Source of the DNA: Candidatus Saccharimonadota bacterium
Lineage (GTDB): Bacteria; Pseudomonadota; Alphaproteobacteria; CAJXXZ01; 1604HC
Length of the DNA stretch: 32,000 nucleotides
Direction: 5' to 3'
Assembly: GCF_008189285.1 (NCBI RefSeq)
Contig: NZ_CP043315.1
Location: 30,001-62,000, forward strand
The position numbers were made by a program, and so were the translations under genes. Below the pieces are notes generated by a model, which was not told the origin of the DNA, did no database searches, and saw only the letters and a list, made by a program, of their open reading frames with translations. Shown here piece after piece: positions 4,842 through 13,628 of the stretch. Position 1 is the stretch's first letter. Each line of letters opens with the position of its first letter.

Positions 4842-4873
4842 GATGACCAAGTGTTTACTTGGGACTTTGTTTT

Positions 4874-6390
<1,517 letters not shown>

Positions 6391-6446: not shown

Positions 6447-6520
6447 GGGCTGGTAGCTCAGTTGGTTAGAGCGCACGCTTGATAAGCGTGAAGTCGGAGG
6501 TTCGAGTCCTCCTCGGCCCA
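6447..6520 (+). tRNA. tRNA-Ile (anticodon GAT)
   Basis: 74-nt cloverleaf gggctggtagctcagttggttagagcgcacgcttGATaagcgtg...ggttcgagtcctcctcggccca. No CCA is encoded. It is in the standard spacer position. Confidence 0.95.
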
Positions 6521-6525
6521 TTTAC

Positions 6526-6598
6526 GGGGGTGTAGCTCACTTGGGAGAGCGCATGCTTTGCACGCATGAGGTAGTCGGTTCGATCCCGACCATCTCCA
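6526..6598 (+). tRNA. tRNA-Ala (anticodon TGC)
   Basis: 73-nt cloverleaf gggggtgtagctca...ctttGCAcg...ggttcgatcccgaccatctcca, with the G3:U70 identity pair. No CCA is encoded. Confidence 0.95.
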
Positions 6599-6608
6599 CT
6601 TTGTCCGT

Positions 6609-6689: not shown

Positions 6690-9490
<2,801 letters not shown>

Positions 9491-9533
9491 ACGCAATGTT
9501 TGTTATGTTATTACTAATCATAAATTTTTGTTT

Positions 9534-9554
9534 ATATTTCTTATACTATTTAAA
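9534..9554 (+). other. 23S trailer half of the precursor processing stem
   Basis: Complementary to 6609-6628 (see the leader half). A degenerate second copy of this trailer motif follows at about 9565-9590. Confidence 0.7.
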
Positions 9555-10178
9555 TTTTTTGACTTTTTGTTTATACTGTTTAAATTTTTAATATTATACT
9601 TCTTATTATTTTATATATTTTGTTGAATATGCGATTGTATCGTTATGTTCAAATGTTAATATAGGTATGTTTGATAATTTGATATATTTTATTAGAGTTA
9701 TTTCCTAAGAATATTAAATTTGTTGATACAATTTATTTTTCTAATTTTTTAATAATTTGATATTTCATTGTATATGCAGTGTTGTAAATTTACTACATTG
9801 ACTTATCTAAATCTTGTCTTTGAGTGTTAAGATAAAATTGCAACTTTATTGTGCTAAATTCATTGCATTTGTATTGATTGATTTAAATAAGTAAGAGTTG
9901 AAGTGCAAAATATTTTATATTTACAAAAGTTCTTCAAAGTCAGCCAAGTCTATTAAATTGCTTTTAAATAAACTGTTCTCATATTTTAGATTTCTTATAA
10001 CAATTATATTAAAGCTACTTAAATTAGATCGATAAGAATAGTTGAGAGCAATTATTTAGATTGATAAAATTGGTTATTTTTTGCGCATTCTTTTAATTTT
10101 AATTTTAAGATAATTTGATATTTTATTATAATTTTAATTTAAAGCTTAATTTAAAAAACTATTCTTTTTTAATTAATA

Positions 10179-11175
10179 GTTGCTTAAAAATGAAAGGCAG
10201 GCCATCTTCATATCAGTCAATAAACTTCATGCCTTAATGCATATTGTTAGATTGCTTAAGGGTGAGTTTACAATGAAAAGTTTTTTCTGAACATATTGAT
10301 AGCACAGCTTTTATGGCGCTGATATTAGAAAGGCGAAAAGAATCATTATCGCGCACAGCTATAGTCTGAACATCTTGTGTAATTTAAAACTCAAAACAAT
10401 TAGTTTGTTCTGATGTTTGAAATCTGCCTTAACTAGATTGCTTAAATATTTAATCCTTAAATTCCCATTAACTAGATCACTTAAGTATAAATTTCAATGG
10501 ATAGAATCAAAATTCTTTTTTGATCATATAGCTGCTTATTAGTTTTTTTCTACAAAAATTTAATTAAGACTAAGACTGTATTATAAAAGTGCAAGTGTTT
10601 AGAATTAACCTATTAAGATTTTTCTTTGTGAATTTTTTTTCAGTTTCGATAACGAAAAATTCTTTAATCCTATGAAGTCATAAGCATTAAAGAGTTGTTA
10701 GAAGCGAGAAAACTGGAGCGAATCGTAAAAACGTGAGAAACATTTTCACTGAAAACTCAAAACTTCCTATGAAGCTTTTCTTTTGGTTCAAGTAGAGTTA
10801 GCTTACCTTAAAATGAGAGTGTTTGTTGCAGTTAATAGCAATAGAAACAACGCTACTTAGCTCTGTAGATGTGATGAAATGAACTGCTGCAAGTTTTCAT
10901 TGAGCTAAACTTGTTTTTCCTGCTATTGTGCAGATGATTTATTCTGATGATTTTGAAATCCTTGATTATTTAATGCGCATTTATAGAGCACTGAAATAAA
11001 TTTGCAAAACTTTATATATTTTTGTTGTTGAAATATATTGCTTCCAATATGAGTGAAGTTTGGATCGAGACGCACTTACTTGTTATGTTTGTGAATTTAT
11101 TTGCTTTTTTACTGTAAATGCATTTATTTCTATTAAGCGCTTCAAGAGAAGTTAGCAATGCGAATTGAAATATTT
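10179..11175 (+). pseudogene. decayed, internally deleted 23S rRNA fragment (relic of a second rrl copy)
   Basis: Colinear, same-strand similarity to the intact 23S. The core 10522-10925 aligns by eye to 7762-8200. In the best stretch, 10732-10775 vs 7988-8031, 32 of 44 positions are identical (cgtgagaaacattttcactgaaaactcaaaacttcct vs tgtgagaaacattttcgctgaaagtccaaggtttcct). Weaker anchors: gttgcttaaaaatgaaaggc (10179) vs gttgctaggggtgaaaggc (7441); ttttatggc (10310 vs 7603); gagtgaagtt..ggatcgagac..gcacttact (11051) vs cagtgaagtt..ggatagaccccgtgcacctttact (8610-8680). The outer boundaries are uncertain. Confidence 0.65.
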
Positions 11176-11655
11176 ATTAGATTTATATAATTTGTAGCGT
11201 TTTATCAGTTTTGCCATTGAGCCATCTCAAAGACAATTTCTTGTGCCATATATAGGTTGTGAAATATTTATTACACATGCATCAGTTTTGCCTTAATTTG
11301 CTTCAAAAGAAATTGTTTATCCAGTGTTAATTGAAATATTTGCCTTTTAACAGTTCGCAGGAATTTCCTTTTTTGATTAATGTGGATTTTTATCTTTTTT
11401 ATTTTCTATGATTTTGTTCTATATACTTGATATCACATAGTAAAAAAAGATAGCTTTAATTTTTTTTTGTTTTCTGGCTTTGTGTTGTATGTTTTTTTAT
11501 ATAGCTAAAATAGTTAATTAAAGCGAAAGTTCTTCAATTTGACTTATTTGACTTGTTAAATAATACAATAAGTCATTTTTAATTTTAATGATTATGAAAT
11601 TGAGAAATTATGAAATTGAGAATTTTAATTTAATTAACTAGTGTATTTTTTTAAA

Positions 11656-13524
11656 TTAATAATCATAGGAATTATAGCTCATATCAAACGCTTTGTTAAA
11701 AATTGTATTATTTCCCCCTTTTCCTGGTATTGCAAATATTACTTTCTTGAATAGTCCTTGGAATTCCTTTTCACTTAGCACTTCTTTGTAGCATTGTGTA
11801 ATGAATTCTGGGCTATTTCCAAATACTCCACATCCCCATGCTCCTGTTATGAATGTATCGCTTCCAGTTATGTATGCAGCCTTAAGCTGGTCACGCATTT
11901 TAGCTTTGGTGATATTTTTGAACTCTTCTACATTTCCTTTTGAAAGATTGAATGCATATTGATCAAATTTTTTGTTTGATGCTCCTTTGCTAAGTTTGTC
12001 ATTTATGCAGTATGCTGCTTGTACAACTACTGCAATATTATGAATTTTGTCAAATGGTTTATAGTCATCTTTCTTCGCTTTTCTGATCAATGAAACTCCT
12101 GGAGCGTAGATTATTTCGTTGTGAGCAATTGGATAAAGCGATGAATGTTGTTTTATTCTACTTTGAAGAATATGGAATAAATTTGTCGATCTGCACAAAT
12201 CCTCTTCCTGTGCTGATGCTCCTTTTTTGAATCCTCCGCACATGTCTTCTTTGTTTGCAAAGTCTAATACAGCAACTTTAAGCCCTTGTTGAATTGCGGA
12301 ATCAGATGCTGTGATGGAATCTGTATTCGCAACTTCTATTTTAGTGACATGTGTAGTTTTAGATTTTAATTTTTCATTGAATCTTTTGTTTAATTCTGTG
12401 GAATTATTTTTATACGTACTATTTGCTGCTTTTTTTGCGTTTAGACTTGTTTCATTATCTACATTCCAGTCATGGTGTTGGTTAGCAAAGATAGTTAATT
12501 CATAATCTCCTCTTGTGCTTCCTGGTTTGTATGCGCTCCAAGATTCTCCTGTTTTTGACACAATAACATCTGCAATCAATGCGCTTCCTGACCTATCTTT
12601 TGCATATTCAGGCTCTATCATAAGAGATGATCCTCTTTCATCTTTTTCAACAGAAGTAGAGGTAGAAGCTCCTTTTCCACCAGCAGATTCAAGTCCTTTT
12701 GACCCTTTGCTATAAGATTCTTGTTGTATTACAGAAGATCCTCTTCCAGCGGTAACTGCAGATCCTCTTCCAGCGGTAACTGCAGATCCTCTTCCACCAG
12801 AGGTAGAAGCTCCTTTTCCACCAGCAGATTCAAGTCCTTTTCCACCTTTTCCACCAGCTTCAACAATCTCTACAGTTTTTCTTGGTTGAGATGCGCCAAA
12901 TCCACTAGGTTCTGCATTTTTTGATACATTATTGTAGAAATCATATTTTTCTGTAATGACTGCGTATCCTTCTATGTTTATAATTTTAAATTCTACCCCT
13001 ATGCATTTTTCAATAGCTAATACCTGTTCACGTGCTAAATTATCCTCAGAAAATTTGTCTGTTTCTTTGAAATGTTGAGCCGTTTTAGATTGCGAGGAAT
13101 GCATGTGATTCAATAGATCTTCTATGCTTCTATTTTTATTAATAGCCTCTTTAATTATTTGTTCTTGCTTATCACTGAGGCCTCGATATGTTGATTTAGC
13201 TACTTGTGTTAACAATGCTGTAATTATTGCGTAATAATCACTTCCATTTATTTCTCCACGCTTAGTTTTTTCATGCAAGCTTTTAATGGTAAAATTGACC
13301 GATTGCGCATTGTCTTTAATCAGATCTCCAAGTTCGTTTGCTAAACGTGAATTCAATTTTAATAATTCAAGTGAATGTATGCTGACTCCTATATCTTGCA
13401 TTTTAATTGAGTTAGAATGCAATGCATTATAATCTATTCGATCCTGTTTTAAATTTATGCAATTTAAGTATGATGTCAATAAAAGTGGAATAATGTTTAA
13501 TATTTTCATAATATATTCTAACAT
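11656..13524 (-). CDS. multidomain protein with C-terminal microbial-type PARG / TIGR02452-like macrodomain (putative ADP-ribosyl hydrolase)
   Basis: The ORF is open to TTG at 13542, with ATG candidates at 13524 and 13509. The C-terminal ~230 aa carry LKVAVLDFANKEDMCGGFKKGASAQEEDLCRSTNLF and FITGAWGCGVFGNSPEF. I recognise these as the Gly-loop/QEE and diphosphate-loop blocks of the DUF2263/PARG_cat_microb family. The N-terminal ~200 aa have no recognised motifs, and the middle is a Gly/Ser/Lys/Arg repeat linker. Confidence 0.75.
   Translation of the reverse strand: MLEYIMKILNIIPLLLTSYLNCINLKQDRIDYNALHSNSIKMQDIGVSIHSLELLKLNSRLANELGDLIKDNAQSVNFTIKSLHEKTKRGEINGSDYYAIITALLTQVAKSTYRGLSDKQEQIIKEAINKNRSIEDLLNHMHSSQSKTAQHFKETDKFSEDNLAREQVLAIEKCIGVEFKIINIEGYAVITEKYDFYNNVSKNAEPSGFGASQPRKTVEIVEAGGKGGKGLESAGGKGASTSGGRGSAVTAGRGSAVTAGRGSSVIQQESYSKGSKGLESAGGKGASTSTSVEKDERGSSLMIEPEYAKDRSGSALIADVIVSKTGESWSAYKPGSTRGDYELTIFANQHHDWNVDNETSLNAKKAANSTYKNNSTELNKRFNEKLKSKTTHVTKIEVANTDSITASDSAIQQGLKVAVLDFANKEDMCGGFKKGASAQEEDLCRSTNLFHILQSRIKQHSSLYPIAHNEIIYAPGVSLIRKAKKDDYKPFDKIHNIAVVVQAAYCINDKLSKGASNKKFDQYAFNLSKGNVEEFKNITKAKMRDQLKAAYITGSDTFITGAWGCGVFGNSPEFITQCYKEVLSEKEFQGLFKKVIFAIPGKGGNNTIFNKAFDMSYNSYDY
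12658..12841. repeat. intragenic repeats: 43-bp perfect direct repeat pair flanking 24-bp tandem repeats
   Basis: agaggtagaagctccttttccaccagcagattcaagtcctttt occurs at 12658-12700 and 12799-12841 (encodes KGLESAGGKGASTS twice). gatcctcttccagcggtaactgca occurs in tandem at 12737-12760 and 12761-12784, plus a partial third copy (encodes the GRGSAVTA repeats). Confidence 0.95.
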
Positions 13525-13628
13525 TTTAACTTTTGAAGTCAAGTAAATTTTTATTGTTGCAATTAGGCAAATTTAATCAATTGAATAAATAGGTTTTGCA
13601 ATTGTATATATATTTGTTACAGTTATAC

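Follow-up and report, generated by a model that had tools for sequence, protein, structure and literature searches.

A decaying and probably lineage-specific 23S rRNA gene fragment downstream of the sole rRNA operon in a reduced Cytomitobacter genome

INTRODUCTION

In its architecture, the locus described here comes closest to that of Borrelia burgdorferi sensu lato, where one 16S gene is accompanied by two tandem 23S-5S sets, both of them complete and transcribed (PMC3037291). As in Borrelia, the bacterium is host-restricted and its rRNA genes are few; the extra 23S sequence comes directly downstream of the 23S gene, shares its orientation and represents a lineage-specific event within a genus. 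Unlike in Borrelia, the extra sequence amounts to 14% of the gene, its structure is ruined and no 5S gene is involved. The nearest conceptual parallel is the proposed shuffling of rickettsial genomes by rRNA-gene recombination. Split and rearranged rRNA operons are described from obligate intracellular bacteria, and recombination at duplicated rRNA genes is proposed to have shuffled Rickettsia genomes (summarised in PMC2688493). Shared with these systems are a reduced alphaproteobacterial endosymbiont, an atypical rrn with an unlinked 5S gene and an rRNA-derived repeat at a breakpoint, whereas the events summarised there are deduced from gene order only, with no mention of an rRNA remnant (PMC2688493). 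Furthermore, eroding pseudogenes in the spacers of reduced symbionts such as Buchnera are well known (PMC3164680) and resemble the present case in that a long AT-rich spacer holds a recognisable, eroding remnant which drifts toward the composition of the genome. Those pseudogenes are mostly protein-coding genes lost from the ancestral set, whereas here the remnant duplicates an essential RNA gene that stands intact next door.

In the present work we describe this remnant, referred to below as the relic, together with its surroundings, its state of decay and its probable origin. Organelle genomes likewise contain rRNA gene fragments and pseudogenes that lie without function near points of rearrangement, although they differ from the relic in genetic system and in mechanisms. 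A literature search of incomplete coverage found no description of a 23S pseudogene fragment in a bacterial endosymbiont, and because of that coverage the absence of a prior description is no proof of novelty. The preprint on Cytomitobacter genomes (10.1101/719211) does not mention the relic.

RESULTS

One intact rRNA operon and an unlinked 5S gene

The DNA that we analysed, the window, is a stretch of 32,000 nt corresponding to positions 30001-62000 of a genome that consists of a single contig. At 628,024 bp and 29.7% GC this genome falls inside the range published for Cytomitobacter symbionts (10.1101/719211). We refer to it as G000, to three congeners as G001-G003 and to the representatives of two other genera of the family as G004 and G006. 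Positions are those of the window unless genome positions are stated. The sole rrn operon of the genome has the following parts:

4873-6389, plus strand: 16S rRNA gene, intact
6447-6520, plus strand: tRNA-Ile gene, spacer tRNA of the operon, intact
6526-6599, plus strand: tRNA-Ala gene, spacer tRNA of the operon, intact
6693-9489, plus strand: 23S rRNA gene, intact and of full length (Rfam RF02541, 2585.9 bits)

The intact 23S gene is present in a single copy, as judged by blastn and nhmmer over the whole genome. No 5S gene lies 3′ of it, and the single 5S gene of the genome is located at genome positions 574333-574448. As the 5S gene is found hundreds of kb away from the 16S-23S operon in all six family genomes (G000-G004 and G006), the split between 23S and 5S must be old and family-wide; the unlinking is older than the relic and unrelated to it.

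The 23S trailer (9480-9555) is complementary to the 23S leader, including the leader of G001 (an opposite-strand match of 86 nt at 74%), in keeping with a conserved processing stem. The first ~65 nt downstream of the 23S are therefore to be counted as functional rrn sequence rather than as spacer. Within the 23S gene there are AT-rich expansions at 7843-7887 and at about 8125-8150, the distribution of which is variable. A hairpin of ~20 nt in the 23S is present in the genus and in G006, missing from G004 and deleted in the relic.

A colinear piece of 23S sequence in the downstream spacer

The 23S gene is separated from the next ORF, on the minus strand, by an ORF-free tract of 2,166 nt. This tract is the longest non-coding stretch of the genome apart from the rRNA genes, with a median gap of 150 nt, according to a crude measure that counts ORFs of ≥90 aa. 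The segment of the 23S gene that recurs in the tract, and the parts of the tract itself, are given below:

7781-8191, plus strand: parent segment within the intact 23S, roughly E. coli 23S nt 1100-1480
9490-10536, no strand assigned: AT-rich spacer from the 23S to the relic, of which the first ~65 nt are conserved 23S trailer
10537-10917, plus strand: 23S pseudogene fragment (the relic core), equivalent to 23S nt 1089-1499, by Smith-Waterman, blastn and nhmmer
10918-11655, no strand assigned: AT-rich spacer 3′ of the relic, which includes ATCAGTTTTGCC in duplicate at 11204 and 11281

The relic core is homologous to the parent segment, colinear with it and on the same strand. Smith-Waterman alignment of 9491-11655 with the 23S gave a same-strand score of 88, as compared with 17.8±1.9 (maximum 23) for 60 dinucleotide shuffles, 15 for the reverse strand of the 23S and 13-17 for the 16S, and the alignment of the relic opens with 13 identities in 13 positions. 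Blastn aligned the relic with the 23S at 62.7% identity over 418 columns (E 4e-27), and nhmmer with the --max option recovered it at E 2e-21, with an alignment of 10537-10921 inside an envelope of 10517-10941. The relic measures about 380-425 nt, which is equivalent to 411 of the 2797 nt of the 23S, and it starts 1,047 nt 3′ of the end of the intact gene. The parent segment includes an AT-rich expansion of ~30 nt and of helix-45 type; its E. coli numbering is approximate, being anchored by a partial alignment in which query positions 113-317 correspond to about nt 1186-1394 of the annotated E. coli 23S.

An earlier note on this DNA had described the tract as a same-strand, colinear copy of internal 23S sequence, and this core observation is borne out by all three methods. 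The best stretch that it singled out (10732-10775 against 7988-8031) is also exact, with 32 identities in 44 positions and with G or C in the 23S replaced by A or T in the relic at 7 of the 12 differences. The extent that it proposed, from 10179 to 11175, holds for 10537-10917 and fails on either side. Free local, semi-global and end-anchored alignments of 10179-10536 with 7441-7780, and of 10918-11175 with 8192-8760, all fell within the shuffle distribution, and nhmmer at E<=10 gave no match in either of these flanks. A relic of 750-1000 nt is therefore to be replaced by one of the size given above, and a mapping in which about 125 nt of relic would cover about 410 nt of 23S is without support, since the flank alignments are no better than shuffles.

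Further remnants of 16S, ITS, tRNA or 23S were found neither in the spacer nor in the rest of the 628-kb genome when a four-genome rrn profile and a single operon were used as nhmmer queries (--max, E<=10). Besides the operon and the one relic, the rrn profile matched nothing in the whole genome except ordinary tRNA genes similar to those of the operon spacer. Neither rRNA nor the closest relative nor the post-relic spacer shows detectable homology to the spacer 5′ of the relic (9490-10536), and for the spacer 3′ of it (10918-11655) none was detected to the 3′ part of the 23S or to anything else. The similarity between the post-23S and post-relic spacers that is expected of a young trailer repeat was not seen, and it would in any case be undetectable after such decay. 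The sequences that flank the unlinked 5S gene resemble the spacer no more than shuffles do, and tblastx against G000 and G001 revealed no protein-coding remnants in the spacer, the six-frame translations of which are full of stops with no frame of 60 aa or more.

The small repeats listed in the earlier note are present in the spacer, namely TAGATTGCTTAA at 10248 and 10434 and the ATCAGTTTTGCC pair, and the variant of the former has to be moved by one position, from 10472 to 10473. Just 5′ of the relic there is a 30-nt imperfect direct repeat (10420-10449 and 10459-10488; 77% identity, 39-nt spacing). It contains the TAGATTGCTTAA / TAGATCACTTAA motif, and the copy at 10248 is a third exact copy of this 12-mer.

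Loss of structure and AT-biased decay

The relic is a dead, non-functional 23S fragment. A search with the Rfam LSU model at E<=10 on 9480-11700 returned no LSU and no 5S, the only matches being chance snoRNA and miRNA ones. Against a consensus structure derived from six functional 23S segments, each of which keeps 94-100% of the pairs, the relic retains 64 of 98 scorable conserved base pairs, and a further 21 are deleted. Pairs that changed on one side are broken in 23 of 41 cases and pairs that changed on both sides in 10 of 16, so no compensatory pattern is apparent. The branch leading to the relic in the phylogenetic tree measures 0.75 substitutions per site, as compared with 0.012 for the functional copy.

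The decay of the relic looks neutral, AT-biased and unconstrained, in agreement with what had been claimed for it from the sequence. Over the 351 columns in which G000 and its closest relative share the functional state, the relic is unchanged at 233, and GC→AT changes (75) exceed AT→GC changes (34), such that 54% of GC sites have changed versus 19% of AT sites. The GC content is 41.1% in the parent segment and 30.1% in the relic, the genome as a whole standing at 29.7%. Estimated separately, the relaxation of GC sites and that of AT sites coincide (e^-λt ≈ 0.32-0.33) if the equilibrium GC is taken as 25%, the composition of the spacer. The indels are small, comprising three deletions (7, 4 and 26 nt) and a single insertion of 6 nt.

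Comparison with relatives and placement of the relic

Each of the five relatives (G001-G004 and G006) has one 16S-23S operon, and a second rrn operon was found in none of them. The operon flanks of G001-G003 and G006 contain no 5S gene 3′ of the 23S and no rRNA-like sequence; in the three congeners the 23S is followed after 160-650 nt by the next gene, an ORF of 1,050-1,064 aa. In G004 the spacer tRNAs are located elsewhere in the genome. G001, with 95% identity to G000 across rrn, lacks the relic throughout its genome, and a relic-specific 22-mer gave 0 matches to metagenome contigs.

The ~30-nt expansion is present in the relic and, among functional 23S genes, in those of G000, G001 and G003 only. 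A variable stem, AAGTTT...AAACTT, is found in the relic and in the functional copy of G000 alone, and at four sites the relic keeps an ancestral base that the functional copy of G000 has since changed. A maximum likelihood tree makes the relic the sister of the G000 23S (SH-aLRT 76.7, UFBoot 76), a placement that these values support moderately. The AU test rejects a relic outside G000+G001+G003 (p 0.012) and one basal to the genus (p 0.001), and does not reject a relic that is sister to G001 or to G000+G001 (p 0.28). Several of the derived states common to the relic and G000 are G→A/T changes, which could be convergent under AT pressure.

Four-fold degenerate sites in 282 ortholog pairs of G000 and G001 are 45.1% identical, with 38.0% expected at saturation. 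A crude estimate, for which equal neutral rates are assumed, would date the duplication to about 0.6 of the way along the G000 branch, counted back to the G001 split; on this dating the copy would be old, yet younger than the split between the species.

A species-specific breakpoint beside the operon

Synteny with all three congeners extends from holB-metG-dcd through the 23S and ends at about 9506. As G000 alone breaks there, right after the 23S, the relic sits at a derived breakpoint. The genes that lie 3′ of the 23S in the relatives are found in G000 at genome positions of about 120.7-129.3 kb, immediately following the block that in G001 lies before rrn, so that a 14.5-kb rrn block (holB-metG-dcd-rrn) has moved in the G000 lineage. 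No rrn remnant is present at the ancestral site (genome 120.2-120.7 kb). In the 470-nt junction vacated by the rrn block, a 15-nt unit, AAAACAGTCAAAATA, is repeated in tandem about nine times at genome positions of about 120,520-120,660. Synteny resumes at 13595, and the 4.1 kb between the 23S and glmU are species-specific, consisting of the spacer with the relic and of the following ORF:

11656-13542, minus strand: lineage-specific ORF of 628 aa with a PARG-type macrodomain (NCBIfam TIGR02452, 1.2e-29) in its C-terminal part

This ORF has no counterpart in the five relatives, and an exact-protein look-up gave no match. The glmU matches in G003 (126652-127917, TAA) and in G006 (191957-193216, TGA) were reported with one internal stop each; pseudogenes, alignments that overrun the gene or errors in sequencing could explain these stops. 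On the scale of the genome, colinearity between G000 and G001, both of ~620 kb, is broken up into more than 100 blocks, and inversions and translocations are numerous; the Cytomitobacter genome preprint calls the symbiont genomes relatively stable (10.1101/719211).

DISCUSSION

We propose that the relic is a decaying 23S fragment which was duplicated within the lineage of this species, later than its separation from the closest sequenced congener, and which was probably partial from the outset; we consider this the likely origin of the sequence. According to this model, a piece of the 23S gene (nt ~1089-1499) would have been duplicated in the G000 lineage at the species-specific rearrangement breakpoint, and the copy would most probably have been partial at birth. 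It may stem from a short tandem duplication that had its left boundary within the 23S; or the break by which the rrn block moved may have been repaired with a patch for which the nearby 23S served as template. Under either route the copy would never have been a working gene. The relic would since have drifted about two thirds of the way toward the AT-rich equilibrium of the genome, gaining small deletions on the way. A partial start is suggested because parts of the same age should be detectable at ~65% identity and none were found, because the distance between the end of the 23S and the relic's counterpart of nt 1089 is only 1,047 nt, and because the alignment begins with an unbroken run of identities. 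Since the relatives have single operons and the relic carries species-specific characters, the copy would have originated de novo at a time when the lineage already possessed just one operon. It is possible, and we put this forward tentatively, that the relic is the scar of the move of the 14.5-kb holB-metG-dcd-rrn block, the 23S piece having been copied or duplicated at the break.

Alternatively, a complete tandem duplicate of the 23S gene or of the rrn operon may have formed in the G000 lineage, become inactivated and then suffered large deletions that left only nt 1089-1499. Such a duplicate would fit the same orientation of the relic and its position directly downstream of the operon, the 2.17-kb ORF-free tract, which looks as if much DNA was once there, and the three internal deletions, which would represent deletional decay; moreover, tandem 23S-5S duplicates exist in Borrelia burgdorferi (PMC3037291), and the remainder of a complete copy could have been lost through large deletions, such as are frequent in reduced genomes. 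The earlier note had also seen in the relic the remains of a whole second 23S or rrn operon. The tract gives this no support: only 23S nt 1089-1499 is detectable, and parts of the same age should be visible next to a survivor that is 63-66% identical, but 16S, spacer tRNA, 23S nt 1-1088 and 23S nt 1500-2797 have left no trace. In addition, the 1,047 nt available compare poorly with the about 2.9 kb plus trailer of a whole operon, and at least two large, neatly placed deletions would be needed. We therefore regard a complete duplicate as rather unlikely. An ancestral origin, in which the relic would be the last remnant of a second rrn operon kept similar by gene conversion until recently, draws on the general loss of rRNA operons in host-dependent bacteria (PMC2688493) and on concerted evolution, which could mimic species-specific characters. 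It is very improbable, given that a second operon is found in none of the five relatives, such that several independent and traceless losses would be needed, that the site is a derived, species-specific synteny break, and that the AU test rejects a deep placement. The earlier interpretation of the tract as a snapshot of rRNA operon copy-number reduction does not survive the single rrn of five out of five relatives and the relic-free flanks of G001-G003 and G006, and the species-specific 23S characters, the sister position to G000 and the AU rejection of placements outside G000+G001+G003 speak equally against an ancestral copy.

Chance or compositional similarity, or a functional RNA element such as a 23S-derived decoy or regulatory RNA, deserves hardly any credence as an explanation. 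The alignment score lies about 37 sd above composition-matched shuffles, far beyond chance. In favour of a functional RNA, read-through from the 23S into the relic is conceivable, given that the interval contains no predicted intrinsic terminator; against it stand the pairs broken by single-side and double-side changes (23/41 and 10/16), a composition that has relaxed to the genome average, and the fact that the relic was not found in relatives, neither in the flanks of G001-G003 and G006 nor in the whole of G001. The partial, lineage-specific duplication that we favour leaves a relic that reveals no new mechanism or function and is in this respect a modest curiosity.

The relic is nevertheless a rarely seen object, a recognisable rRNA-gene pseudogene fragment in a highly reduced bacterial genome. 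With a relative age and a mutation spectrum attached to it (about 35% divergence, a 2.2:1 excess of GC→AT changes and an equilibrium GC near 25%), it provides a small internal clock for neutral decay in Cytomitobacter. Furthermore, it marks a species-specific rearrangement breakpoint beside the rrn operon, and it corrects the tempting reading that an ancestral loss of rrn copy number has been caught in the act. Finally, if the relic is indeed the scar of the rrn block's move, it would provide direct evidence, from sequence, that the genomes of obligate intracellular alphaproteobacteria are shuffled with concomitant duplication of rRNA genes or template switching, a role of rRNA genes that in Rickettsiales has so far been inferred only from gene order.
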